Assembly (NCBI GenBank): GCA_028282465.1
Contig: JANQHX010000007.1
Location: 1 to 64,000 of the forward strand
DNA length: 64,000 nucleotides
Direction: 5' to 3'
From: Gynuella sp.
GTDB lineage: Bacteria > Pseudomonadota > Gammaproteobacteria > Pseudomonadales > Natronospirillaceae
Shown: positions 2,080 to 16,830 of the stretch, piece after piece
Layout: every line of letters starts with the position of its first letter
Numbering within the stretch: the first letter of the stretch is position 1
Made by a program: the position numbers and the translations under genes
Notes under the pieces: model-generated
Databases searched by the model: none
What the model was told of the DNA's origin: nothing
What the model saw: the letters and a program-made list of their open reading frames with translations, nothing else

Positions 2080-2625
2080 CTAACGGCGAGGGTACTTACG
2101 AGCATTTACCCAGGCCGCTAGCAGACCGAATATAAAGCCAAAGATATGACTTTCAAAACTGGTTTGTGCTCGAAGATCTATTAAGGTGAACAGCATTCCA
2201 CCATAAAAAAAAGCAATCCAAATACTAATGAAAACGGGCTTCCAGCGTCGAATTAACCACCCGTAGACTAACAGATAAGACCAGTACCCCATGATTAGAC
2301 CGCTGGCACCGACGTGAACTCCAGGTCGACCCACTAACCATACCGCCATTCCGGTCAGGAAAATTATGATCCAAGTGACTCGCCAGAAATTAGGGGTTTG
2401 GGAGGCGAAAATGACGAACACAAAAAGAGGTAGGCTGTTCGCCATGATGTGCTCAAGACTGCCGTGAAGGAATGGAGAAGTAAATATACCGATAAGATGA
2501 ACCGGGCTTTGAGGTACCAGCCCGAACATATTGAGGAAATAGTGGGCGTGCATATTGATCAGCTGCAGCACCCAAATAAACACAAGCCAATTGATAGCTA
2601 ACCGAAAACTCTTCCCTAGCGTCAT
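2080..2625 (-). CDS. Rhomboid-family intramembrane serine protease
   Basis: The 181-aa polytopic membrane protein carries the catalytic 'GASGLIMG' (GxSG) motif in a TM helix and the 'SHIFGFIFG' (AHxxGxxxG-type) His helix. Its start is 7 nt after the stop of the upstream TerB-like gene, so co-transcription is likely. Confidence 0.7.
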   Translation of the reverse strand: MTLGKSFRLAINWLVFIWVLQLINMHAHYFLNMFGLVPQSPVHLIGIFTSPFLHGSLEHIMANSLPLFVFVIFASQTPNFWRVTWIIIFLTGMAVWLVGRPGVHVGASGLIMGYWSYLLVYGWLIRRWKPVFISIWIAFFYGGMLFTLIDLRAQTSFESHIFGFIFGLLAAWVNARKYPRR

Positions 2626-2632
2626 TTAAAAA

Positions 2633-2875
2633 TCAAAAATTCTCTAATATCTTTTTCAGCTCTTCTACACTTTCAGCCAGCTCAGGATCAAGCTCTTCTT
2701 GCTCCAAGCGAGCCATAACATTCTCCAGAACCTGCTTTTCTTTAGGATCTATATGACCGTCTCGAATAGCGATCTCCACCAAAGCACCCAACTCTTCAGC
2801 ATTCAAAGTCCCATGTTCGTCAAAGGCCTGCTTTGATCTAAAGGACATTTCCTGATGGTCTGATGAATCTTTCAT
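2633..2875 (-). CDS. Small (80 aa) TerB-like/DjlA-N-like protein, paralog 1
   Basis: It aligns along its full length with the 80-aa product of 11324..11566 (shared pattern ...SFRS...F...G.L...EL..LV.IA.RDG.ID..EK.VLEN...RL...EL..EL.E.V..L.K.L...). The 'IA.RDG.ID..EK..L' core resembles the TerB/DjlA N-terminal fold. Confidence 0.55.
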   Translation of the reverse strand: MKDSSDHQEMSFRSKQAFDEHGTLNAEELGALVEIAIRDGHIDPKEKQVLENVMARLEQEELDPELAESVEELKKILENF

Positions 2876-2988
2876 AACTCTGTCTCAATGGAATGGCTCT
2901 GGGGTTGGAATCGGCATGTAACATGGGTTCTAAAGACTAAGATACAAGGTTAACGCCGATATTCTGTTAAATACCAATAGTCTTTATG

Positions 2989-5900
2989 TTAGCCGCTACT
3001 CTCTAACGCTTGGAGTTTTTCCATGATTTCATTCATTTTATAATGAGTGTTCAAATCAATATTGATTTTGCCATTCATTATTTTGACTAACGGCAGCAAA
3101 GACTCGTCAAGAGTGTTAATCAAAGCCTTCAGCACATCATCTACACCCTGAACCGGCTCATTCACCACAGTCACATTTGGCTCCCGCTGCATGAGAGCAT
3201 CCAGTTTATTGATGACAAGATTGCCATCGAGTTCCGGCTTATTTGTTTCTCTGCTCTGGTTTTGGATGACCCTTGCAAGTTTGGCGATTTGAGTGGCAAC
3301 TAACCTTGCTGACTCACCTTGACTACTTTGCGGTTCATCAGATCCTGCTAAGGCCTTAGTCGCCGCTACCAAATCTACCAATTGAGCCACCACCTTTGTT
3401 GCAGCGTCAGTATCGTCACCACCCATCGCTTTGTTACGGGAGAAATCGTCCAAAATTTGCTGCCAGCGCTGGCTCTGCACCTCTGTCATATTGCCACGAA
3501 GCTGAGCCAGCTTAAGCAGATTTTCTTCGGCTCCCTGGGTCAGCAACTGAGCTTCGCCTTGGTAATGATCTGACACCAACTGCATCAATTCATCTTGAGT
3601 CATCACTGAAGAGAGTTTTTCAGCCATCTTATTCATATTTCGATAGCTACCCTGAAGCTTAAAAGCAGGTTCTTGTCGATATTTTTCTGCCGTGGCGCTG
3701 CTTTCAATATATTGCTGATTCACTTTTAAAATAACATCTCGAATGACAAACATTTTTTGCAGTACCGAGACAATTTCCTGAACTTCAGCACCACTGTAAT
3801 TGTGCTTGAGTTCATTGGCTGCTATTTGATCCGTTTCGGCCATTTTAATCAAACTGTAGACATCATCCATACCCCGAGTTGCCAACGGAGCTAACACCGA
3901 ATTAGAGGTCAACGAGTTTTCAATAAAACTCAAACCGAAGGTGTCCTGTTTACCACCAATCACATCACCCAGGTTATAAATGTCCGCACGGTTTGCCAGC
4001 ATGTCCGGAATTCGGAAGAGCTCACCACTTTCCGTGTAGGGGTTGCCCGCCATCACAATGCAGAATTTTTTACCTCGCATATCATAGGTTTTGCTGTCAC
4101 CTTTCCAGACACCTTCCATACGACGTGTTCCGTCACATAAAGAAATAAATTTTTGCAAAAACTCTGGATTAGTATGCTGAATGTCATCCAAATAAAGCAT
4201 GACGTTGCTACCCATCTCCAACGCCAAATTAAGTTTTTCCAGCTCCTGCCGAGCGGCACTGTTAGTTGCTTGGGAGGGGTCAACTGAATCCGCCTGATGA
4301 CCAATAGACGGGCAGTTAATTTTCATAAACACCAAGCCAAGACGATTCGCTACATATTCCATCAAGGTGGTTTTACCATAACCTGGAGGCGAGATAAGCA
4401 GTAACAGCCCCATTAAATCAGTGCGCTTATTTTCACCCGCAGTACCCATTTGTTTAGCTAGGTTATCGCCGATCATAGGTAGGTAAACTTCGTTAATCAG
4501 TTTGTTGCGGACGAATGAAGACAATGGTCTCGCTTTGTATTCATCTAACCTGAGATCTTCACGATACTGTTCCACCAAGCTCTGGCGCACATCTTGTAAT
4601 TTGTACCAACGAGGAACTGTTTCTAAATGAAAGGCCGACAACCGCTCCAGATACTCATCCAGCTGCAGTTGATATTGGCCGTTATCTAATTGAGAGTGAT
4701 CGCCATACATACCAACAACAGTTGCTTGCAAGTCAGCTTCTGTATCTTGCCGATCGACACGGGCATCAGCATTTAAAATTGAAACCGCCTCAGGAATAAA
4801 ACTTTCTAACTCAACAAGGTTTTTATGTTTAACAAAACCTTGCAACCAACTGTTAGTTAAACGCCAGCGGTTACCCACATGACCTTTTTGCTTTTCTAAA
4901 GCCGTCTGATAATCACGCCAAACATTTTGGACATTGAGTTCAGTTTGGAAATCATTAACCAATTTACGAGCGTATTTAGTCGTCACAAATTGATGATGCT
5001 CTGCTGACAGCTCAAGCACCAAATACTCTGCCGCCTGTTTGATTTTTACCAATGGAACTTTCAAAGCCCAAGACTCGTTAAATTCCATCAACTGCTGAGA
5101 TACTTCAGCTTCAACATTATTAAGAGATGTGCGATCGCCAAATACGCTGGACAACTGATATGCAGTTCTAGCCCTTTCTGGCCAATGTTCACATACCTCT
5201 GAACGCTGATGATTCACCCAAAACACCACTGCTAACGACCTTGCTAACGCACTAAACCTTAGAGGCCCAGCCTGTTCGAGGAGTTGGACTAATATCTTTA
5301 GTATATTTGCTGCGTCTTGATCATGAATACCCTTCTCGTAGCCTTCACGATAGCGATCAGAGGCAAAGTCTCGAACCAGATCTAATAACGCTTCGGGGTT
5401 TTCAATTGCTTGAGTGAGCTCATCCCAACCAACAGATTTTGCTGAGGGCAATTTCCCCTGAGACGTCTGTAAAATTAAAAATGCCAGGTATTCAGAACGA
5501 TAGACAGTTTCAGATTCTGAACTGAGGTTTTGATCCCATAGATTAGACAGTTGGCTTAAACTCTCGTCTTCAATGGCTTCGTAATAATCTGTACCGGTAA
5601 GATGAATATGTTGAACACCTGATCGTGGAATCAGTGTTAAATCCAGTTCAGTGGTATTGACCGAGAAACGGTGTCTTGGCCCTAATTTAATGACCTTACC
5701 GCCCTCTTCAAAGATATCGGATTTATCCCTGAGGGTTCGAATAGCCTGATCCTTCAATGCTTTAACTTTCGCTTCCAAATCATCGGCTTTAACGACTTCG
5801 TCCAACTCACGCAACTCTTGAGAAAGCTGATTCAGTTTGAGTATCAAGGCATCAGAAGCAAAAAACGTATTCAGCTCATCCTCAGTTTTAAAACCAGACG

Positions 5901-8262
5901 TTCTGCGGTTAACGCTTTCGATAATTCGGCTAGCAGCATCAAAGATATTTTGAGCTTTACGCTGACGCGCTTCTAAAAGCTGTTGTTTTTGGGTTTCAAA
6001 GGCTTCGTAGATTTCATCTCTCTTGCCGAGAATATCGGTCAGGAATTCATCATGCTCACTAAACTGACTTTCCAGCTCTTCCAGCTGAACCAATAACCGC
6101 GCTAACTGTTCATCACATTTTTCTGGGGAGGTCGAAAGGGAAAGCGCACTTTGCACACTTTGACCCAGCAACTTGAATTGAGCACCAAACTGAGCTGTCG
6201 CTTCTGCAGAACCCAATGATTTTCGTTTTTGCTGCAGCCGAGCTTTTTGCTGATTGAGCTTGCCATAAAATTCCGAAATGGATTCCACAATGGCGGTTTG
6301 CTTTGTAGCATCTGCAACTTTCAAGGTGGCCATTAATTCTGATAGTAGATCCAAGCCCTCTGCAATAGAATTAATTTTCTCCAGCAGTGGTTCCAAATCA
6401 GACACCTTTGAAACCGAATCTGCCCCGCTAACTAACCCTTGCATATCTTTCTGATAATGAGCCAGAGCATCATCACCGGATAAAAATTCGACGGTTTGCC
6501 CATTGAGTCTGTTTTCAGCATCAGCCAGTTGCTGATCTAATTCATCCAGGCGAGCCACATCCATGTAACGCAGCTCTTTTAATGACATCAGGTGCCCACG
6601 CTGTTGTCGAATTTTCTGCAAGCCTTGAACAAAATCTCCAGGGCTTCGCCAGCCATCTGGATGACTGCTTTTAATAATTTCTTTCTGGGAAACTTCCGCC
6701 TGGGAAAGTGCTTCTTTAGAGTTTTTTTGGATGCTCTCTACTTTTTCATACTCATCCAAAACAAGTTCAGATGTTTCAGATATTTGCTTAATGAGTGCGG
6801 CTGTTTCTGATAACTTGTCACTGTCTAGCCAGTAGTAACTATCAAAAATTTTACCGCAGCTTTTACTCAACAAATTAAAATGGCTAGCGGACACATTAGC
6901 CTCATTAATCATGCGAACAATGCCGTATATTTCTGAGATGCCACGGACGAGTTCTGCATTACCAAGCTTTCCAAAAAAGCTAGTTTTTAAAGGTTGCTGA
7001 CTGGCAAATTCATCAGAGAAGTAAGGTGTTTCCCAAACCTGCAAAGGATGCACTCTGGTTGCTTCTGTCTCGGCATAGAAGATTGCTAAATGTCCGTTTT
7101 CAAAAAAGCCATAACCATGACCAAAAATAGGGTTGCTTAACTCTTTTTCGATAAGATTGTAATTGAGTAACGCAACCTTACCGTCGTTTGGTTCATAAAA
7201 TAGGAACAGAACATCTTCACCATTGGGTGACTTAAACTGTCGCTTATATACAAAGCCGGAATAATCATCATCAAAGGTTTTATGAGCGCCTGTGGCGAGG
7301 TAATACCCCCCGGGAAATACAATCCCATGATCCTCTGGCAACTGTACACAGGACTCACCAATGGCATCCAATCGTACAACCTTTTCAGTTTGCTTGTTGA
7401 AGACTAAATAGCGGAAAGATTCCTCAAGATAGGGCTTAATTTTTAATAACAGAAGTTGACCTAGCTCGACAAACTCAAGCTCAAGATCATCTAGAGACTG
7501 ATTAGTTTCTTGAACAGGCTCAGAATAAATACCTTCGCCTGAATCGGTGTTGTTTTCCACCTTAATGGTCAGAGCACCGTTTAAGCAATCAACAAATAAA
7601 CTATCTTGAACACTGTAATGAGCATGGCGACCTAATACAATTTGATCTCGGTCTACCGTTTGCCATTCAAAATCAAATTTTGGTGGTAGCTCAATATCTC
7701 TCTCACCGCGATTATCAATGTATTGCAAGTCGCCAGTTGCAGATAAATTCCAGCGAAATACCCGCTGGTCACTTAATTGATCACCAATTTGGAAAGCGGC
7801 TAATAACTTTCCATTTTTGGTTACCAACTGCGTTAATCGAGTGTTCTTGTAGTAAGAATACAGCTCACGAAAATCATTAAGAAAACTTTGGTCATTAAGA
7901 AAGCTTTTTTCAATCGGAACCGCTTCGATATCAAGGTTATCTTGATCGCCCTTAAGTCGGTATAAACCGAATACGTCTGTAACAGCCGTTTCTTTTTTTA
8001 AGCCAATAAATACGTTATAGCCAAACAGCAGATAATCGCCGACTCTAACCAAATCGCGAGCTACGCAATTATGTTCTGTTCTAAGCCGTAAGCGACCAAT
8101 AACAGACATTTCTGTGCTGCCAAACTCTTGTTGGCGCTCAGCATTAATAGCCTGAACCTGCTTAGAAAGTTCTTTACCCTGCTTAATTAAGCGAGAGTGA
8201 ATAACCTCATAGGTTCCACCTTCAGAAACCGCTTGCTCTACAATGGATTGATTATCTGCCAC
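2989..8262 (-). CDS. Giant (1757 aa) coiled-coil protein with a C-proximal AAA+ ATPase domain (AAA_5/MoxR-dynein-like); family unknown
   Basis: It is a single uninterrupted 5.27-kb ORF. The Walker A box 'LLLISPPGYGKTTL' is encoded near nt 4370-4400. It is followed by 'SNVMLYLDDIQH' (Walker B-like) and 'KFCIVMAGNPYTESGELFRIPDMLANRADI' (sensor and Arg-finger region typical of AAA_5). The central region, roughly residues 550-900, is strongly Q/E/L/K-rich and heptad-like, so a long coiled coil. The N-terminal 450 aa are beta-rich and unrecognised. I see no TM segments. Confidence 0.8.
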   Translation of the reverse strand: MADNQSIVEQAVSEGGTYEVIHSRLIKQGKELSKQVQAINAERQQEFGSTEMSVIGRLRLRTEHNCVARDLVRVGDYLLFGYNVFIGLKKETAVTDVFGLYRLKGDQDNLDIEAVPIEKSFLNDQSFLNDFRELYSYYKNTRLTQLVTKNGKLLAAFQIGDQLSDQRVFRWNLSATGDLQYIDNRGERDIELPPKFDFEWQTVDRDQIVLGRHAHYSVQDSLFVDCLNGALTIKVENNTDSGEGIYSEPVQETNQSLDDLELEFVELGQLLLLKIKPYLEESFRYLVFNKQTEKVVRLDAIGESCVQLPEDHGIVFPGGYYLATGAHKTFDDDYSGFVYKRQFKSPNGEDVLFLFYEPNDGKVALLNYNLIEKELSNPIFGHGYGFFENGHLAIFYAETEATRVHPLQVWETPYFSDEFASQQPLKTSFFGKLGNAELVRGISEIYGIVRMINEANVSASHFNLLSKSCGKIFDSYYWLDSDKLSETAALIKQISETSELVLDEYEKVESIQKNSKEALSQAEVSQKEIIKSSHPDGWRSPGDFVQGLQKIRQQRGHLMSLKELRYMDVARLDELDQQLADAENRLNGQTVEFLSGDDALAHYQKDMQGLVSGADSVSKVSDLEPLLEKINSIAEGLDLLSELMATLKVADATKQTAIVESISEFYGKLNQQKARLQQKRKSLGSAEATAQFGAQFKLLGQSVQSALSLSTSPEKCDEQLARLLVQLEELESQFSEHDEFLTDILGKRDEIYEAFETQKQQLLEARQRKAQNIFDAASRIIESVNRRTSGFKTEDELNTFFASDALILKLNQLSQELRELDEVVKADDLEAKVKALKDQAIRTLRDKSDIFEEGGKVIKLGPRHRFSVNTTELDLTLIPRSGVQHIHLTGTDYYEAIEDESLSQLSNLWDQNLSSESETVYRSEYLAFLILQTSQGKLPSAKSVGWDELTQAIENPEALLDLVRDFASDRYREGYEKGIHDQDAANILKILVQLLEQAGPLRFSALARSLAVVFWVNHQRSEVCEHWPERARTAYQLSSVFGDRTSLNNVEAEVSQQLMEFNESWALKVPLVKIKQAAEYLVLELSAEHHQFVTTKYARKLVNDFQTELNVQNVWRDYQTALEKQKGHVGNRWRLTNSWLQGFVKHKNLVELESFIPEAVSILNADARVDRQDTEADLQATVVGMYGDHSQLDNGQYQLQLDEYLERLSAFHLETVPRWYKLQDVRQSLVEQYREDLRLDEYKARPLSSFVRNKLINEVYLPMIGDNLAKQMGTAGENKRTDLMGLLLLISPPGYGKTTLMEYVANRLGLVFMKINCPSIGHQADSVDPSQATNSAARQELEKLNLALEMGSNVMLYLDDIQHTNPEFLQKFISLCDGTRRMEGVWKGDSKTYDMRGKKFCIVMAGNPYTESGELFRIPDMLANRADIYNLGDVIGGKQDTFGLSFIENSLTSNSVLAPLATRGMDDVYSLIKMAETDQIAANELKHNYSGAEVQEIVSVLQKMFVIRDVILKVNQQYIESSATAEKYRQEPAFKLQGSYRNMNKMAEKLSSVMTQDELMQLVSDHYQGEAQLLTQGAEENLLKLAQLRGNMTEVQSQRWQQILDDFSRNKAMGGDDTDAATKVVAQLVDLVAATKALAGSDEPQSSQGESARLVATQIAKLARVIQNQSRETNKPELDGNLVINKLDALMQREPNVTVVNEPVQGVDDVLKALINTLDESLLPLVKIMNGKINIDLNTHYKMNEIMEKLQALESSG

Positions 8263-8337
8263 AGCCTGATCCTTGACTCAAATATTGGGAATTCAAAAAA
8301 GTTAATGGGCTGAAATGAATTCAACCCAGTGACTTTG

Positions 8338-10299
8338 TTAACCGTTGAACTGCTCTGGGTTTTTGTTTTCTTTTGCACCCAACGTCATCAGTTTTTCAAT
8401 CACCTGTTGAATTGCTGGACTTTTCCCAATTAAACCTTCAACGGCATTCCCCAGGCCCAAGCCTTGAGCCAGTTTGTTAAAGTAATCTCCTTGGCCACCT
8501 ACAATATCAATGTTGGCATTTTCAAAGGCTGCAGCCAGTACTTCTGCTTGATCTTTCGCAATGGATTTATTGGCATCAATACTCGCCATCACTTCTTGAA
8601 TTGCCGCTTCTAGGTTCATACGGAACTCTTCGAATTCACGAGCCTGTGGACTCATATTGCTCATGGCAGCAAATTTGTCGATCAAGCCCTGAGCTTCAGA
8701 TGATGCTTTCTGGCGGATAACCTCAGCAGAGGCCAGACCTTTTTCTTTCTCTGCTTTGGCAATTGCAAGCCCCATCTCTTCTTCACCACGGGCTTCTGCG
8801 GTAAGTAACTCTTCACGTACTTTTGCTTCAACCAGCCCTTTTTTCTCATCGGCAGCGGCCTGCGCTTCGGTGACTCTGGCCTCTACTAGGCCCTCTTTTT
8901 CAGTAGCATCGGCTTTGGCTTCCATCACTCGTGCCTGTGCCAAACCTGAAGCCGCCTCCTCAGCTTGCATACCTTCAGCTTTCTTCTTGCGAGATTCCGC
9001 GTCTTTCGCAGCAGCTTCTAGTTCAGCTTGAGCGATTAAGTTAATTTCTTTCGCTTTGTGGATGGCTTTCTGCTCATCTGCTTCTGCGGCCTTCACCTCT
9101 TTGACCATTTCTTCTTGAGCAACTGCTTCAGCATCTAGAATACGAACCTGCTTTTGGCGGTCAGCTTCTGACACTTCTCTCACCTCTTTAATACGCTCTT
9201 CTTCTTCAGCAACCTTCTTCTCAACTGCTATGCGTTCTGAAATAGTGCTGGCAATAATTTTACGCTCTTCTTCCAGTGCTTTTTCTTTATTGATCCGTTC
9301 TAGTTCAACTTCACGCTCTCGGTTTACCGCTTCTAATTGCTGGGCACGAACCACTTTCTCTTCTTCAACTGCAATGGCACGTTCGCGGTTTTTACTGGCG
9401 ATTTCAACTTGCCGCTGTTTGTTTTCTTCTCGAATAGCGACTTGCTCTTCGGTTTCAATGCGAGCCTGTTCTGCCTTTAAGCGCTCTTCTTCAACAACCT
9501 TTTTAGTCTCGGCTTCTTCCCGAGCACGCAGGGTATCGACTTCTCTTTGTTGTCTGGCTTCAGCATCTGCTTCCTGACGCTCTAGAGATAGCAAAGCCTC
9601 TCTGGCTTCAACATTTTTCTTGGTGATTGCCAACTCTTCATCTTTTTCAAGACGGTTGGTTTCTACATTTTGAGTAGCCGTTAATTCGGTGATACGACGA
9701 ATACCTTCGGCATCTTGAATATTATTTGGGTCTAACTGAGTTTTAGGAGTTTGCTCTAAATAGTCGATCGCTACATCTTCTAAAACATAGCCATTTAAAT
9801 CATTACCAATGACTTCAACAATTTTTTCACGGAATTGAATACGGTTTTCAAACAAGTCTAAGAAAGACATGTTTTTACCTACGGTTTTTAACGCTTCAGA
9901 GAATTTAGCGTTGAACAATAAGTTTACCGCCTCTTTGTCTGATGCACGTTCAACCCCAATGGCTTTTGCTACTTTTAATACGTCATCGGAGGTTTCATTT
10001 ACTCGCAAATAGAATGCAACGGTAATGTCTGCTCGAAGGTTGTCTTTACAGATTAATCCATCTTGACCCCGTCGATCTAATTCAAGAGTGATCAAAGAGA
10101 TCTTCATTACTTCTTTTCTGTGCACAATAGGTATTACCATTGAACCAGTGAAGCTCACCTTGGGCTTGCTCGCTGTAGTATTCACGATCAGGGCATGGCC
10201 CTGATCTATTTTTTTATAAAAAGCAGCATAAGAAAAAACCAACGCTACTACGGCAAACACAATTATCCCGATAACTGAGGTAAAAAACTCGGCACCCAT
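8338..10299 (-). CDS. yqiK: Flotillin-like SPFH/Band-7 protein (YqiK family)
   Basis: The 653-aa product has an N-terminal TM helix and an SPFH domain ('...SLITLELDRRGQDGLICKDNLRADITVAFYLRV...'). These are followed by a very long E/A/K/R-rich coiled coil ('EAEARQQREVDTLRAREEAETKK...'), typical of bacterial flotillins. It is paired with a YqiJ-like gene immediately upstream, as in E. coli yqiJK. Confidence 0.85.
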   Translation of the reverse strand: MGAEFFTSVIGIIVFAVVALVFSYAAFYKKIDQGHALIVNTTASKPKVSFTGSMVIPIVHRKEVMKISLITLELDRRGQDGLICKDNLRADITVAFYLRVNETSDDVLKVAKAIGVERASDKEAVNLLFNAKFSEALKTVGKNMSFLDLFENRIQFREKIVEVIGNDLNGYVLEDVAIDYLEQTPKTQLDPNNIQDAEGIRRITELTATQNVETNRLEKDEELAITKKNVEAREALLSLERQEADAEARQQREVDTLRAREEAETKKVVEEERLKAEQARIETEEQVAIREENKQRQVEIASKNRERAIAVEEEKVVRAQQLEAVNREREVELERINKEKALEEERKIIASTISERIAVEKKVAEEEERIKEVREVSEADRQKQVRILDAEAVAQEEMVKEVKAAEADEQKAIHKAKEINLIAQAELEAAAKDAESRKKKAEGMQAEEAASGLAQARVMEAKADATEKEGLVEARVTEAQAAADEKKGLVEAKVREELLTAEARGEEEMGLAIAKAEKEKGLASAEVIRQKASSEAQGLIDKFAAMSNMSPQAREFEEFRMNLEAAIQEVMASIDANKSIAKDQAEVLAAAFENANIDIVGGQGDYFNKLAQGLGLGNAVEGLIGKSPAIQQVIEKLMTLGAKENKNPEQFNG

Positions 10300-10333
10300 A
10301 ATTTATCTCTCCATATTTCTTATAGTCGAATAT

Positions 10334-10987
10334 CTATTTCAATTGCTGTTTAAAATCTTCTTCTGATACCACCTGATAAATTTCTTCAGCATCAGACAGC
10401 TTCTCGATAATGACCACTTGGTCATTTGTTTTAAAATTTTTGTTTGAGCGTATCTGTATAATTAAACTTGCGCCTTGTGCCTGCACATCCCCTTCGCCAA
10501 AGTGTTCATCAACTCTACTACTTCGAACACGACAGGTTTTACCCACTAATTCTTTCTTAGGAGCAGGAGCATAAGCGTTTCTAAAAAATTTCTTTAAAGG
10601 TCTGATCACAAACGATGTCACGGGCATCGCTATCGCAACACTACCAACCAGAATGGCTGCACCAATTGGCCATTTGAGCACACTATCCATCAATCCAAAT
10701 GGCATTAACCAAACACAGGTATAAGAGATCACCCATGAGGTTAAACTTAGTATCGTAAGAACAAACATAATGGGTACACCAGTAAAACCCATGGTGGAAA
10801 TAAAGCTGGTAAAACCACCGACCTCGCTAGCATCTACATCAACATCAACATCAATATCAGCATCAAAATCAAACACACCGAGCATTGAAATCAATGACAA
10901 ACAGATTGTCACCCCCAACATAATGCTGAACACCACGGTGGGAAATGACAATACGATCGCCAAATAAGCTTCTGTTGAATTTTCCAA
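10334..10987 (-). CDS. yqiJ: YqiJ-like inner-membrane protein (DUF1449, NfeD-like OB-fold partner of flotillin)
   Basis: The 217-aa product has several TM helices, an acidic 'DFDADIDVDVDVDASEVGG' stretch as in YqiJ, and a C-terminal soluble beta-rich (OB-like) segment. It ends 35 nt before the flotillin start. Confidence 0.7.
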   Translation of the reverse strand: MENSTEAYLAIVLSFPTVVFSIMLGVTICLSLISMLGVFDFDADIDVDVDVDASEVGGFTSFISTMGFTGVPIMFVLTILSLTSWVISYTCVWLMPFGLMDSVLKWPIGAAILVGSVAIAMPVTSFVIRPLKKFFRNAYAPAPKKELVGKTCRVRSSRVDEHFGEGDVQAQGASLIIQIRSNKNFKTNDQVVIIEKLSDAEEIYQVVSEEDFKQQLK

Positions 10988-10990
10988 AAC

Positions 10991-11314
10991 TTACTCTCCT
11001 TGTTGCTCTTTAGCCCACTCAATCAATGCTTCAGCAGCTTTCTCTTTAATAGCTAATTTGTCATCTGGGTCTAGCCCATACTCGTCAGCCAACAGCTCAT
11101 AGTCTCTTAAAGACAAGCTAATGGTGAGCCTTGGGCGCACTGGTTTTTTGACAGGCAACCCAAGAATAGCTCGCATCTGATCCGAAGGTGTTCTGTCTTC
11201 GTCCAATGCCGCTTGCTTAATTTGTTTCTGTGCTTCTGAAGAAATGTCAAATGCAACCTGAGTTGCCTTAATCGCTTTTCGCTCTTCAGGCCACAGCTGT
11301 TTTTTATCAACCAT
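10991..11314 (-). CDS. Hypothetical 107-aa soluble protein inside the PspA-flotillin cluster
   Basis: It is a clean ORF tightly packed between the TerB-like and YqiJ-like genes, with a 4-nt gap to yqiJ. I recognise no family. Confidence 0.5.
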   Translation of the reverse strand: MVDKKQLWPEERKAIKATQVAFDISSEAQKQIKQAALDEDRTPSDQMRAILGLPVKKPVRPRLTISLSLRDYELLADEYGLDPDDKLAIKEKAAEALIEWAKEQQGE

Positions 11315-11323
11315 TAATTAATT

Positions 11324-11566
11324 TTAAATTTCACTCAACTGCTTTGTTAACTGACTAACTTTTTCACCCAATTCACCTTGAAGCTCATCTGCCGAAAGCC
11401 GAGAGATTATATTTTCCAGTACTCGTTTTTCATTGGCATCTATCTCACCATCCCTTAGGGCAATGGCTATAAGCTCGTCTAGTTCTGAAACGTCCAACTT
11501 CCCGTCATCGCTAAATACGTTGATAGAACGAAACGTCAGTTCTAAATAGTCTCTTGATTCAGTCAT
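11324..11566 (-). CDS. Small (80 aa) TerB-like/DjlA-N-like protein, paralog 2
   Basis: It is a paralog of 2633..2875 along its full length. Its start codon overlaps the stop of the upstream PspA-like gene (TAATG), which suggests translational coupling. Confidence 0.55.
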   Translation of the reverse strand: MTESRDYLELTFRSINVFSDDGKLDVSELDELIAIALRDGEIDANEKRVLENIISRLSADELQGELGEKVSQLTKQLSEI

Positions 11567-12264
11567 TACTCGGCATCCTTTGCTTGTTGTTTAATTCTCT
11601 CCAACACAGACCCCGCAGAATGGGAATCAACTTTAATACCCGCTTCTTTGAGCTGCGTATCCAGATCCGCTTTTTTCAGGCTCGCATCCACCTCTTTTTT
11701 TGCTTCTTGCAGGTCGTCGTGTTGCTGCTGTTTTTCTTTAATGCGCTCTAGTGATTCTCTGGCGCTACTCAATGCTGATTGCTGACTATTGATTTCACTG
11801 GTTACCTGCGCGGTAGCTTTTTGCACACTGGCGGTAGTGGAGACCATATCCAGTTCCCGTTGATATTCAGCAATATTCTTTTCTGCCGTTTCAATCTGAT
11901 TTTTTAAGCGATTGGCTTGATCTGTATACTGGTTCACTACAGAAGTTTTTTGGCCCAGTTGAACCTCGAGATCACCGACTTTTGCAGCGACTTCTAACGC
12001 AAGCGCTTCATTATTTTGCTCAACAGCACTCAATGCATGAGTTTCATATTCGATTTTTTGTTTGTTTAATTCATTTACATTTCTTTCTTCTGCCATTCGT
12101 TTAGCAACAACTTGCGCCAACGATCCCTTGGCATCTTCCAATTGTGATTTGGCATCAATGATTTCTTGTTCGGTTATTCTGAGCGCTTGGCTATCGACTA
12201 CAGCCTCGCCTAACTCTCTGGCGCTGCCACGGATCATAGTGATCAGCTTTTGCAAAACATTCAC
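11566..12264 (-). CDS. yjfJ: PspA/IM30-family protein (YjfJ-like, ESCRT-III superfamily)
   Basis: It is 232 aa, the same length as E. coli YjfJ, and entirely helical coiled-coil sequence ('...LRITEQEIIDAKSQLEDAKGSLAQVVAKRMAEERNVNELNKQKIEYE...'). It lies immediately downstream of a DUF2170/YjfI homolog, as in the E. coli yjfIJ pair. Confidence 0.8.
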   Translation of the reverse strand: MNVLQKLITMIRGSARELGEAVVDSQALRITEQEIIDAKSQLEDAKGSLAQVVAKRMAEERNVNELNKQKIEYETHALSAVEQNNEALALEVAAKVGDLEVQLGQKTSVVNQYTDQANRLKNQIETAEKNIAEYQRELDMVSTTASVQKATAQVTSEINSQQSALSSARESLERIKEKQQQHDDLQEAKKEVDASLKKADLDTQLKEAGIKVDSHSAGSVLERIKQQAKDAE

Positions 12265-12283
12265 AGGTATTACCTCCTAATCA

Positions 12284-12739
12284 TTATTTTAAAAATGGCT
12301 CTATGGCTTCTAATGCGTCCATGGCGTTACTAGCCAAGGTGACTAACTCATGATGAAAAACTTCTTTTTTTGAATGTCTTGCAAGTGCGCCAAACACCAC
12401 ATAATAGTCTGAGACTAGCGCAAAAGAGCTCAACGGCATTGGAATATTGAGATCTAGTAAGTAACGGTTTAACTCCACTTCCTTTTCCAGTTTTATTTCA
12501 TCTTTTTTAAATAAATAAGCGATACAAATGATCTGAGTATTTGTGACAGTGACAAACAATGGCAGCGCGTCCAGCTCAGACACCTCGACTCTCAACACTG
12601 GCTGTTCGCCATTAATTGGCAGGCAGTTAAAGGTATGCCCCTTATATTTTGCCTCCGCCAAACTAAGTGTTAGCTCTTGCATTAACTCCATATGCACCTC
12701 GGTTTTGACATAATATGTCCATACTAGATGTGCCGACAT
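12284..12739 (-). CDS. yjfI: DUF2170 protein (YjfI-like)
   Basis: '...MPLSSFALVSDYYVVFGALA...LASNAMDALEAIE' matches E. coli YjfI ('MPLSSVGISSVQQEEYYIVFGALS...LVDNALDLAEI'). The true start may be the internal Met ('MELMQELTL...') rather than 12739. Confidence 0.75.
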   Translation of the reverse strand: MSAHLVWTYYVKTEVHMELMQELTLSLAEAKYKGHTFNCLPINGEQPVLRVEVSELDALPLFVTVTNTQIICIAYLFKKDEIKLEKEVELNRYLLDLNIPMPLSSFALVSDYYVVFGALARHSKKEVFHHELVTLASNAMDALEAIEPFLK

Positions 12740-13123
12740 AATATGTCAACAGCTTCATAAAAATTTAATACTAATGATGACCACAATGCGGCAAAGTAAA
12801 TCAAAAGGCCTCTCCGCAAGTTGATTAGAATCGAGCTGATAAAGGTAAAAAATTTCGAAAAATGAAGTTTAGTAGCTATTTGTGAAAAGCAAGGAATTTG
12901 AGGATGTTAAGAACAAGTGGTCTGTGAATGGCTCTTCCAATCATCAGCTTTCAAATGATTTTTACACCTTGAGTGAATCAAGTTATAGCAATGGCTGCCA
13001 GTTAAGCATTGATATTGAAAAAGTGAACTATGGAACCTTAGATTACAACTATGGCAAGGGCGGAGAAGCCAGAGGTATACAAAGAACCACCCTTAACCTA
13101 GAACTTGAGCCCAGGTTGTAAGA

Positions 13124-15262
13124 CTATTTTGGATTTTTAGGCAAGCCAGTGTGCTGAGTCCGCGCATGTTGAAACTTTCTGCGTGCGCCGCTCTTCATTT
13201 TTCTTTCCCGTTGATATTTTTCTTGCTCTCTTCGAGTTTCAGCCGGCACCAAACATTTTTTACCCCGGCCAATCAAATCTTCACGCCCCATTTTTCTCAA
13301 TGCGGCGCGTAGCATCGACCAATTATCAGGGTCGTGATACCTCAAAAAAGCTTTATGCAAGCGACGTTGATCTTTGGTTTTAGCACTAAACACCAACTCA
13401 CTGCCCTTTCGTTTAATAGGCCTCAAAGGATTACGTTCGGTGTAATACATTGTGGAGGCCGTCGCCATGGGAGATGGGTAGAAGTTTTGCACCTGATCTA
13501 CCCGGAAACCATTGCCTTTTAACCATAGCGCTAAATTCATCATGTCTTCATCAGTGGAGCCTGGGTGTGCAGAAATAAAATATGGAATCAAATACTGCTC
13601 TTTCCCAGCTTCTTTGGAAAACTGTTCAAACATTTTTTTGAAAGCGTCGTAGGTGCCCATACCCGGCTTCATCATTTTAGTGAGTGGACCATCTTCAGAA
13701 TGCTCTGGGGCAATTTTTAAATACCCTCCCACATGATGCGTCACAAGTTCTTTCACATATTCTGGGTCTTCAACCGCAAGGTCGTACCGTAAGCCAGAGG
13801 CGATAGCGATTTTTTTAATGCCGGGAATTTCACGGGCTTTTCTATAAAGCTGAGTAGTTGGGCTGTGGTCGGTATTTAAGTTCGAACAAATTGTGGGATA
13901 AACACAGCTAAGCCTGCGACAGCTCTCTTCAATTTCTTTGCTCTTACAATTCAATCGGTACATGTTGGCGGTTGGGCCACCTAGATCCGAAATCTGCCCA
14001 ACAAAACCAGGGGTTTTATCACGAATTTGCTCTAACTCATTCAAAATACTTTCTTCAGAGCGGCTTTGAATAATGCGCCCTTCATGTTCCGTGATAGAAC
14101 AAAATGTGCAGCCACCGAAACAACCTCGCATGATATTTACTGAGGTTTTAATCATGTCATAAGCTGGAATTTTAGCGTCGCCATAAACCGGATGAGGAAC
14201 CCTTTGGTAGGGCATTTCAAATACCCAATCCAACTCTTCTGTTGTCAAAGGTATGGGAGGTTGATTCAGCCAGATATCATTTCGCCCATGACGCTGAACT
14301 AAACACCTAGCGTTACCAGGGTTGGTTTCTTTATGAAATATTCGGTCGGTATGGGCATACAGAAGAGTGTCTTTTTTAACGTCTTCGTAAGATGGTAATC
14401 GAATAAAAGAACCTTCAGGATCAGTTTGCACCGCCGCTGGGTCAGGTAAAATCGTTACCGCCTCCGCGCCAGAAAAATCTGCTTCTTTTTCCTGCTTTTC
14501 TTCTTCCATGGCATAAGGGTTTTTCTTCACCATGGGCTTACCGGGTTGGTCTATTCGCGTCGAGTCGATTTCTTCCCAGTTTTCCGGTAACTGTTTTCTA
14601 AGGAATGCCGTGCCACGAATATCTTGAATATCTTTTATCTTCTCGCCATTCGCAATTCGATGAGAGATTTCCACCAATGCTCTTTCAGCGTTTCCAAATA
14701 ATAGAATGTCTGCCGTGCTGTCTAATAAGACCGAGCGACGAATAGATTCACTCCAGTAGTCATAATGAGCCAGCCTTCTGAGACTAGCTTCAATGCCACC
14801 AATTATAACCGGCACATCATTGAAAGCTTCTTTGCATTTTTGGGTATAAACCGTTACTGCTCTGTCAGGGCGTTTACCGGCAACATCACCTGGAGTATAG
14901 GCATCGTCATTGCGATACCTTTTGTCGGCAGTGTAACGGTTGATCATAGAATCCATATTGCCGGCTGTGACACCAAAATACAGATTCGGCTTACCTAACA
15001 CTTTGAAATTATCGGCGCTTTGCCATTCAGGCTGCGCAATGATGCCAACTCGGAATCCCTGAGCTTCCAAGGTTCTGCCAATAACCGCCATACCAAAACT
15101 AGGGTGATCCACATAGGCATCGCCAGTCACCAGAATAATGTCGCAGCTATCCCAACCAAGCTGATCCATTTCTTCTCGACTCATTGGCAAGAACGGCGCA
15201 GTGCCAAAGCACTCTGCCCAGTATTTGCGGTAGTCGTAAATGGCTTTTGGTTGGGTTGTCAT
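13124..15262 (-). CDS. ygiQ: YgiQ-family radical SAM protein (UPF0313)
   Basis: The 712-aa product starts '[57 protein letters not shown]', which is colinear with E. coli YgiQ. The radical-SAM Cys cluster is '[13 protein letters not shown]'. The C-terminal tail is basic. Confidence 0.9.
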
Positions 15263-16405: not shown

Positions 16406-16765
16406 CTAAATAACATGCAACGCAACCGCAATAAAAGCGGGTAAACCTTGAATCCAGAACAGCTTGAAACCAACGGTAATAGCGCCAAACACACCAGCCA
16501 AGGCAACACAAAACATAAAGAATAGATTAATACTGGTGGCAAATACGGGGTCTCCAATCACAAGCGACCAGACTAAGCCCGCCACTAAAAACAAGTTATA
16601 GATGCCCTGATTTGCGGCGAGCATTTTTGTTTTTTCAGCAAAATCTTTTTTTAAGCCAAATACTTTTCGAACCATTGGCTGGGTCCAGAGTACGGATTCC
16701 ATTAAGAAAAAAATGAAGTGTTGTATTGCTATAAAAACAGTGAGAATGACGAGAGGCAGTGTCAT
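16406..16765 (-). CDS. DUF1304-like small membrane protein
   Basis: The 119-aa product has 4 TM helices. The family call is by recollection only. Confidence 0.5.
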   Translation of the reverse strand: MTLPLVILTVFIAIQHFIFFLMESVLWTQPMVRKVFGLKKDFAEKTKMLAANQGIYNLFLVAGLVWSLVIGDPVFATSINLFFMFCVALAGVFGAITVGFKLFWIQGLPAFIAVALHVI

Positions 16766-16830
16766 GTTCAGTACTTCAAAATCTGAGCGAGTTGTTCTAT
16801 TTTACCGGCTTAAAGATGTTGGGCAAGGGG

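Follow-up and report, generated by a model that had tools for sequence, protein, structure and literature searches.

A Bac-type PspA-flotillin-AAA+ gene cluster with rhomboid and TerB-like accessory genes in Gynuella

We analysed a 64,000-nucleotide (nt) stretch of DNA from Gynuella sp. (contig JANQHX010000007.1, positions 1 to 64,000; hereafter the window), in which positions 2080-12739 carry a gene cluster that combines a PspA/IM30 homologue, a flotillin and a giant AAA+ protein. An earlier reading made from the letters alone (hereafter the sequence-only reading) had described nine consecutive genes on the minus strand of this region, and the list of open reading frames (ORFs) reproduces all nine. 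They are tightly packed, and in 5' to 3' order they encode a DUF2170 protein, PspA, a protein of 80 amino acids (aa), a protein of 107 aa, YqiJ, the flotillin, the giant AAA+ protein, a paralogue of the 80-aa protein and a rhomboid protease. The features, ending with the region upstream of the first gene, are as follows:

12739..12284, minus strand: DUF2170/YjfI-BacA-like protein, 151 aa as listed, CesT/Tir-like chaperone fold
12264..11566, minus strand: PspA/IM30 protein of the YjfJ/BacB type (ESCRT-III superfamily), 232 aa
11566..11324, minus strand: TerB-like acidic helical protein, copy 1, 80 aa
11314..10991, minus strand: protein without assigned family, 107 aa
10987..10334, minus strand: YqiJ/YuaF (NfeD2-type) inner-membrane protein, 217 aa
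10299..8338, minus strand: YqiK-type flotillin (SPFH2), BacD/PaFlo3 orthologue, 653 aa
8262..2989, minus strand: giant soluble AAA+ protein, BacE orthologue, 1757 aa
2875..2633, minus strand: TerB-like protein, copy 2, 80 aa
2625..2080, minus strand: minimal rhomboid intramembrane serine protease, 181 aa
12740..13123, minus strand: intergenic region upstream of the cluster, presumed to bear the promoter, 384 nt

The intergenic distances, in the order of the genes, are 19, -1, 9, 3, 34, 75, 113 and 7 nt, the negative value being a 1-nt stop/start overlap between the PspA gene and copy 1 of the 80-aa gene. Profile searches and direct comparisons with E. coli proteins bear out the gene calls of the sequence-only reading, with the qualification that the two 80-aa proteins can be called 'TerB-like' only. 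Loci from related genomes are referred to below by L numbers, which are those of the survey described further on.

The DUF2170 protein matches Pfam DUF2170 (E = 2.7e-34), the PDB entry 8q8o ('DUF2170 family protein'; 1.9e-5) and, under the cut-off, the NCBIfam BacA model (1.8e-14), and BLASTP aligns it with E. coli YjfI (1e-10) and Pseudomonas paraeruginosa BacA (1e-11). Translation probably begins at M17 (about 12691), which would make the protein 135 aa long, since the orthologues in L082 and L001 are of exactly that length and a sigma70-like site (TTGACA-17-TAGTAT, 12749..12721) overlaps the listed ATG at 12739. The protein encoded next to it belongs to PspA_IM30 (Pfam 6.4e-36, above the gathering score), aligns over its full length with E. 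coli YjfJ (BLASTP 8e-22) and matches Vipp1/PspA chains in the PDB (9e-5). Family membership and structural matches together identify it as an ESCRT-III-fold subunit, which is predicted to polymerise.

For the 653-aa protein, Pfam gave no match even at E <= 1, the same being true of its P. paraeruginosa orthologue, NCBIfam gave none either, and neither sequence nor profile searches matched it to the PDB. Its identity as a flotillin was doubted after these empty searches and was settled by direct comparison with E. coli YqiK. BLASTP aligns the two over 492 residues (5e-42, 30% identity), through the transmembrane (TM) anchor and the SPFH region and into the coiled coil, and a profile of 25 orthologues matches YqiK at 99.8% by hhalign. 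In this protein a single N-terminal TM segment is followed by an SPFH domain and a long coiled coil rich in Glu, Ala and Lys. Its orthologues in related loci, including BacD of P. paraeruginosa (L033), were detected with E values down to 1e-276. As a side observation, the Pfam Band_7 and Flot models miss this YqiK-type subfamily (window 8338-10299, L033 7755-9821, L082 5763-7844), as do precomputed annotations, so that domain-based surveys of SPFH proteins under-count it.

The flotillin gene is preceded by one for a 217-aa protein with several N-terminal TM segments, as judged from hydropathy, and a soluble C-terminal domain. It scores below the gathering threshold against Pfam YqiJ_N (0.0023), and a profile built from 25 orthologues matches E. 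coli YqiJ by hhalign (91%, 9.4e-7). The pairing of YqiK with YqiJ has been classified as SPFH2-NfeD2 (PMC2636767).

Directly after the flotillin gene, as in Bac-type clusters, comes that of a large AAA+ protein with a propeller-like N-terminal domain and a coiled coil. The sequence-only reading had called this 1757-aa ATPase unrecognised. It falls in the Pfam families DUF3686 (7e-194, residues 31-477) and DUF7902 (1.5e-27, residues 598-682) and has more than 5,700 homologues at E <= 1e-5, mostly named 'DNA repair ATPase' or 'AAA family ATPase', with the nearest relatives in Kangiellaceae, Cellvibrionaceae and Oceanospirillales-like Gammaproteobacteria. The protein consists of the beta-rich, propeller-like DUF3686 domain, a coiled-coil/helical middle, a single AAA/AAA_5 module (1.5e-8, residues 1287-1410; the AAA+ module as a whole spans about 1260-1460) and a helical C-terminus. 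It has no predicted TM segment and no solved structural relative. The 'DNA repair' name of the family apparently comes from the Pfam description of DUF3686, and neither domain content nor neighbourhood gives it any backing; a literature search on the function of DUF3686, DUF7902, PF12458 and the BacE ATPase found no paper.

In an alignment of 12 sequences the Walker A motif PPGYGKTT, the Walker B motif LYLDD, N1407 and R1425 are all invariant, and from the aligned sequences we infer that N1407 is a sensor-1-like residue and R1425 an arginine-finger-like one. The Walker B motif of the family carries an invariant Asp-Asp (LYLDDIQH; D1359-D1360, window 4183-4188) and not the usual Asp-Glu, which suggests that ATP hydrolysis may be slow or switch-like.

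A cluster with these components has been described before. Ravi et al. (2024) reported an operon in which a CesT/Tir (DUF2170)-PspA pair is joined by YqiJ/YuaF, a band-7/flotillin protein and a beta-propeller/coiled-coil/AAA+ protein, found abbreviated flotillin-YqiJ(-AAA+) operons to be more widespread, and listed the same gene order for Dokdonia donghaensis (Bacteroidetes; ANH61663.1) in a table (PMC11237479). They also proposed an ESCRT-like role for the AAA+ protein of the operon (PMC11237479). The window holds all five defining components of this class in identical order, and the ESCRT-like interpretation is the one at which the sequence-only reading had arrived. It differs from the published class in that a rhomboid, a TerB-like protein and a ribbon-helix-helix (RHH)-like protein are absent from the main text and supplement of that paper, where phospholipase D (PLD) figures only as an optional extra.

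The best-studied example is the P. aeruginosa 'biofilm-associated cluster' bacABCDEF (PA3732-PA3727 / PA14_16140-16200), on which work goes back to 2008. Its six genes lie on one transcript by reverse transcription PCR (RT-PCR), the crystal structure of BacA is CesT-like, and when BacA is lost the other five Bac proteins increase 6- to 13-fold (PMC10948618). Osmotic shock induces PA3731 (BacB), without which biofilm formation, rhamnolipid production, swarming and virulence are reduced (PMC2587700). With the operon set out in PMC11237479 and its P. aeruginosa version verified by RT-PCR in PMC10948618, the system is not the undescribed one that the sequence-only reading took it for, and the ESCRT-like role had already been put forward. 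One further paper that came up, on Arc (PMC8926400), mentions PA3729 as a mere background protein in a pull-down table and is not relevant.

Orthology with the Bac proteins was checked against P. paraeruginosa L033, in which BacA-E are encoded in this order and BacF, a PLDc_2 protein (1e-29), lies 1 nt past the stop of the giant gene. The window shares with bacABCDEF the DUF2170 protein (BacA), PspA (BacB), the YqiJ-like protein (BacC), the flotillin (BacD/PaFlo3) and the giant DUF3686-AAA+ protein (BacE), together with their order and tight spacing. The differences lie around this core: the DUF2170 protein of the window is short (about 135 aa versus 206 aa), an 80-aa and a 107-aa gene stand between PspA and YqiJ, and an 80-aa paralogue and a rhomboid gene have been added after the ATPase gene. 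The PLD gene bacF is absent from the window, as judged by tblastn with BacF, its place at the 3' end being taken by the rhomboid gene; a recognisable sigma54 promoter is also lacking. Two genes downstream of BacF, L033 carries in addition a recJ-like gene (16607-18322; DHH, DHHA1 and RecJ_OB domains), which is probably unrelated but could have reinforced the 'DNA repair' label.

In E. coli the homologues of YjfI, YjfJ, YqiJ and YqiK form two dyads, and the order within each dyad is that of the window. As the sequence-only reading had stated, yjfIJ and yqiJK are separate loci there and neither has a giant ATPase: they are 1.2 Mb apart, and neither adjoins a giant ATPase, rhomboid or TerB-like gene. 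The yjfIJ dyad continues instead into yjfKLMC, a polyamine-linked variant.

The neighbourhood of the giant gene was surveyed in related genomes. From 516 confirmed relatives of the giant protein in a genome collection, the best 80 loci were taken with 10-kb flanks, mostly from Gammaproteobacteria, plus a Zetaproteobacterium and Lampropedia, and the window proteins were compared by phmmer with all ORFs of these loci; the denominators given here are informative loci. YqiJ and flotillin genes lie directly upstream of the giant gene, on the same strand, at 72 of the 73 loci with enough upstream sequence, and DUF2170 and PspA are present in 46-49/70. The arrangement recurs in dozens of genomes and is therefore not a matter of chance. 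That homologues of the giant protein might never co-localise with PspA or flotillin, which the sequence-only reading had named as the outcome fatal to its proposal, is decisively contradicted by these counts; its further question, whether the giant gene always co-occurs with both, receives a divided answer, yes for YqiJ and flotillin with a single exception, and only in about two thirds of loci for PspA. Truncation of the C-terminus among giant homologues showed no clean pattern when set against absence of PspA.

The giant ATPase is thus foremost a partner of flotillin and YqiJ, and PspA is a frequent add-on. Because the link to flotillin/YqiJ holds in 72/73 loci versus two thirds for PspA, the emphasis shifts from a 'bacterial Vps4 for PspA' to a 'flotillin-associated ATPase'. 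Individual loci illustrate how the cluster is composed. In L082, the closest informative relative (giant protein 59% identical), the first seven genes follow the order of the window, namely DUF2170 (135 aa), PspA, a 79-aa and a 112-aa protein, YqiJ, flotillin and the giant protein, with the 1-nt overlap between the PspA and 80-aa genes preserved and the second 80-aa gene and the rhomboid gene absent. L084 has only YqiJ, flotillin and the giant protein. The window shows one of the ways in which a common stock of modules has been put together.

By sequence homology, gene order and conserved linkage, the cluster belongs to the Bac family. We consider it highly probable that the region is an operon-like Bac-type PspA-flotillin-AAA+ cluster, orthologous to bacABCDE, with a presumed role in inner-membrane maintenance and envelope-stress adaptation. 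What is new in the window is mild and concerns the accessory set: two TerB-like paralogues, a rare RHH-like 107-aa gene, a rhomboid and no PLD gene.

The strong synteny also bears on the name under which the giant family is annotated. That the protein is a DNA-repair ATPase, with its adjacency to membrane genes incidental, might be argued from the Pfam description of DUF3686 as an 'ATPase involved in DNA repair', from the many homologues so named, from a weak similarity to the RuvB P-loop and from the recJ-like gene two genes downstream of BacF in P. paraeruginosa. Pfam, however, finds no DNA-binding or nuclease domain in the protein, the likeness to RuvB is limited to the generic AAA+ core, and DUF3686 goes unmentioned in the papers searched, so the name appears to be a propagated annotation. 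Near-obligate synteny with two membrane proteins (72/73 loci) further argues against such a function, which we regard as extremely improbable.

The two 80-aa proteins are paralogues (48% identical), which confirms the duplication claimed in the sequence-only reading; their assignment to TerB is less secure, since the matches stay below the Pfam threshold. Copy 1 matches TerB with E 0.003 and copy 2 matches DUF533 (1.3e-4) and TerB (1.1e-3), all below the gathering score, and against the TerB model the two copies reach 18.3 and 19.7 bits (cut-off 24.4) over the C-terminal third of the model only. Among 19 members of the family, ten match TerB (best 5.8e-5) and six match EF-hand_7, all of them weakly. 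The family alignment displays a repeated acidic DGxLDxxE-type motif, a sequence feature that may bind a divalent cation. Homologues occur in 18-20/70 related loci (phmmer) at varying positions in the operon: at the junction of the flotillin and giant genes in many Pseudomonas, after PspA in a Hahella, and after the giant gene in Cellvibrionaceae (a single such copy in L037, L038 and L003). Within the sampled loci, only the window has two paralogues in one locus.

The 107-aa protein has no Pfam or NCBIfam match, and a homologue was found in only 3/70 loci of the phmmer survey. Five members of its family were scanned (window 10991-11314; L001 6655-6975; L049 5418-5741; L066 6795-7127; L082 4759-5097). 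They contain two strand-helix-helix repeats, and RHH_1, RHH_10 and CopG_antitoxin were each matched by one of the five at E about 0.1, so that a tandem, single-chain RHH DNA binder or regulator is a possible identity. The orthologues always adjoin PspA and co-occur with the short (135-150 aa) type of DUF2170 protein.

The last gene of the cluster encodes a rhomboid (Pfam 2.8e-18) whose catalytic motifs, H59xxxN63, GAS108G and H160xxGxxxG, are intact and invariant in 31 orthologues. In 28/72 loci (about 40%) the giant gene is immediately followed by a rhomboid orthologue, and in 14 of those 28 the giant and rhomboid genes share a 4-nt stop/start overlap. A BacF-like PLD gene follows the rhomboid gene in 15-16 loci and the giant gene itself in at least seven, making more than 22 in total. 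The resulting giant-rhomboid-PLD tandem, often with the 4-nt giant/rhomboid overlap, occupies about 15200-16700 in L010, L013-L015, L018, L021, L025-L028, L030, L032, L046, L048 and L050. Some related Pseudomonas strains, L027 and L030 among them, carry the full eight- to nine-gene version, with the order DUF2170, PspA, YqiJ, flotillin, 80-aa protein, giant protein, rhomboid and PLD. P. paraeruginosa retains only the PLD gene of the giant-rhomboid-PLD set, and the window only the rhomboid gene.

The presence of TerB-like small proteins, and of PLD genes in many relatives, brings in domain types known from defence systems as well, and the flanking genes differ between the window, L082 and L084, so that the cluster travels as one block. 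These observations would be compatible with an anti-phage or conflict system centred on the membrane and resembling abortive infection, in which the TerB-like proteins, the PLD-family hydrolase of relatives, the large ATPase and the 'phage shock' protein would counter invading elements or toxins and not serve housekeeping maintenance of the membrane. Against such a role, PADLOC found nothing for eight of the proteins and, for PspA, only a weak and spurious coiled-coil match to LmuB (5e-4). The GC content of the cluster (0.39-0.47) shows no departure from its flanks, tRNA and Rfam scans of the window found neither tRNA genes nor Rfam families, and there are no mobile-element marks nearby. Within a genus, many species share the cluster (Pseudomonas is an example), in contrast to the typically patchy defence islands, and the phenotypes known from P. 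aeruginosa concern biofilm, osmotic stress and virulence. We judge a defence function to be very unlikely.

A different question is raised by PspA, a member of the ESCRT-III superfamily encoded beside an AAA+ ATPase, as in the ESCRT-III/Vps4 pairing. The sequence-only reading had combined these into an undescribed composite system, with the giant AAA+ protein as a dedicated Vps4-like disassemblase of the bacterial ESCRT-III polymer. It is in keeping with this proposal that PspA is encoded near the AAA+ protein in about two thirds of loci, and that a Vps4-like ATPase appears to be absent in bacteria according to a 2025 review (PMC7619361), which leaves a functional niche open. Quite apart from the earlier description of the operon and of the ESCRT-like idea (PMC11237479; bac work since 2008), the structural comparisons do not favour it. 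In an AlphaFold2 (AF2) model of residues 1201-1757, with a confidence (pLDDT) of 63.6, the AAA+ core carries a beta-hairpin ahead of strand 4. Foldseek searches of the PDB with this model give ClpA/ClpB, NorQ and RuvB as best matches (about 1e-4) and place Vps4 only at rank 29 (E 9e-4). The model points to a generic, divergent AAA+ module and not to a Vps4-specific one, and placement in a clade is tentative because the pLDDT is only 63.6. Unlike Vps4, which belongs to the classic clade, the module of the window does not fall there by fold ranking, and Pfam finds no MIT domain in the giant protein. The invariant partner, moreover, is flotillin/YqiJ and not PspA, which is dispensable for the neighbourhood in about one third of loci. 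A dedicated Vps4-like disassemblase therefore seems unlikely to us. The functional link that the sequence-only reading drew between the giant AAA+ protein, flotillin and PspA is upheld, and the ESCRT/Vps4 logic survives as an analogy only, ClpA/ClpB, NorQ and RuvB matching as well or better.

SPFH proteins are known to scaffold membrane proteases, as in HflK/C-FtsH, the stomatin-NfeD/STOPP protease pair and the mitochondrial SLP2-PARL-YME1L assembly. The Bac-type cluster of the window may be likened to these, since it encodes an SPFH protein together with an NfeD-like partner, an AAA+ protein and an intramembrane protease (a rhomboid, like PARL). The likeness, drawn here from the genes alone, is incomplete: the AAA+ protein of the window, 1757 aa long, is soluble and carries no protease domain, and only about 40% of relatives have a rhomboid. 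By this analogy, the DUF3686 AAA+ protein could be primarily a flotillin (SPFH)-directed remodelling ATPase that, together with the translationally coupled rhomboid (and with PLD in relatives), makes up a membrane quality-control or repair machine like HflKC-FtsH or SLP2-PARL-YME1L, with PspA/DUF2170 as an optional, regulated ESCRT-III-like module and the rhomboid and TerB-like proteins as integral parts. We put this forward tentatively, as a possibility that the odds do not favour.

Returning to the Bac-type cluster as a maintenance system, its parts would most likely work together as follows. The single-pass flotillin and the multi-pass, NfeD-like YqiJ would form an oligomeric scaffold at the cytoplasmic face of the inner membrane, on which the giant soluble protein would dock by means of the beta-rich domain at its N-terminus and of its long coiled coils. 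With its single AAA+ module it would act on the scaffold and on the PspA polymer, building them up, taking them apart or remodelling them. The YjfJ-type PspA, with its ESCRT-III fold, would polymerise on stressed membrane, restrained by the chaperone-like DUF2170 protein (compare the rise of all Bac proteins on loss of BacA in P. aeruginosa). In line with the repeated association between SPFH scaffolds and membrane proteases, the rhomboid could cleave a membrane-anchored component or client, and by analogy with HflKC-FtsH, the stomatin-NfeD protease and SLP2-PARL, rhomboid and PLD would be membrane-active hydrolase partners. The TerB-like proteins may serve as small, possibly metal-binding adaptors, and the 107-aa protein as a DNA-binding autoregulator. 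The overall role would be the maintenance of the inner membrane and adaptation to envelope stress.

Several observations weigh against this interpretation. About one third of loci are without PspA and DUF2170 in cis, and PspA may therefore not be the substrate of the ATPase. The model of the AAA+ module is of low confidence and its fold matches are generic, and because the Walker B motif has Asp-Asp and not Asp-Glu, robust ATPase activity is uncertain. The survey covers the 80 best of 516 hits, mostly from Gammaproteobacteria. The P. aeruginosa phenotypes are indirect, and deletion of paFlo3 (BacD) lowers biofilm by only about 20% (PMC13086221). Finally, co-transcription in the window is judged from spacing only, and internal signals may lie in the gaps of 113 and 75 nt.

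Regulation of the cluster may likewise differ from the published P. aeruginosa model. A sigma54-dependent promoter has been reported for the P. aeruginosa bac operon, and a scan that is possibly too strict detected no such site (TGGCAC-N5-TTGCW-like) upstream of the cluster, either in the window or in any of 49 relatives. P. paraeruginosa is one of these, and there too the published P. aeruginosa site was missed. The 384 nt upstream of the cluster, which contain no Rfam family, separate it from ygiQ (13124..15262; its identity as the radical SAM protein YgiQ was confirmed), and a HAD-IIA hydrolase gene lies 224 nt downstream. Of the spacings given in the sequence-only reading, this distance, the 113-nt and 75-nt gaps and the stop/start overlap hold, and the gap between the 107-aa and YqiJ genes is corrected from 4 to 3 nt. 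Promoter- and terminator-like sites are no more numerous than expected from shuffled sequence and do not allow transcription units to be defined. A weak stem-loop with a T-rich tail (minus strand, 8328..8306) lies in the 75-nt gap between the flotillin and giant genes, where an attenuator is possible.

The cluster bears on how the polymers of bacterial PspA/Vipp1 and the scaffolds of flotillins are assembled and disassembled, given that bacteria are not known to have a Vps4-like ATPase (PMC7619361). Among genomic candidates for an ATP-driven partner the Bac-type operon ranks first, and its giant ATPase (BacE) is mis-annotated as a 'DNA repair ATPase' in public databases. The window adds no new kind of system, and the survey sharpens the hypothesis by showing that the tie between the ATPase and flotillin/YqiJ is near exceptionless. 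The rhomboid, PLD and the small TerB-like protein are recurrent members of the operon, the rhomboid and the TerB-like protein being undescribed in the operon literature as far as we have checked. Should the ATPase prove to be an SPFH-directed AAA+ machine, the 'no Vps4 in bacteria' gap would be filled by a non-homologous ATPase.

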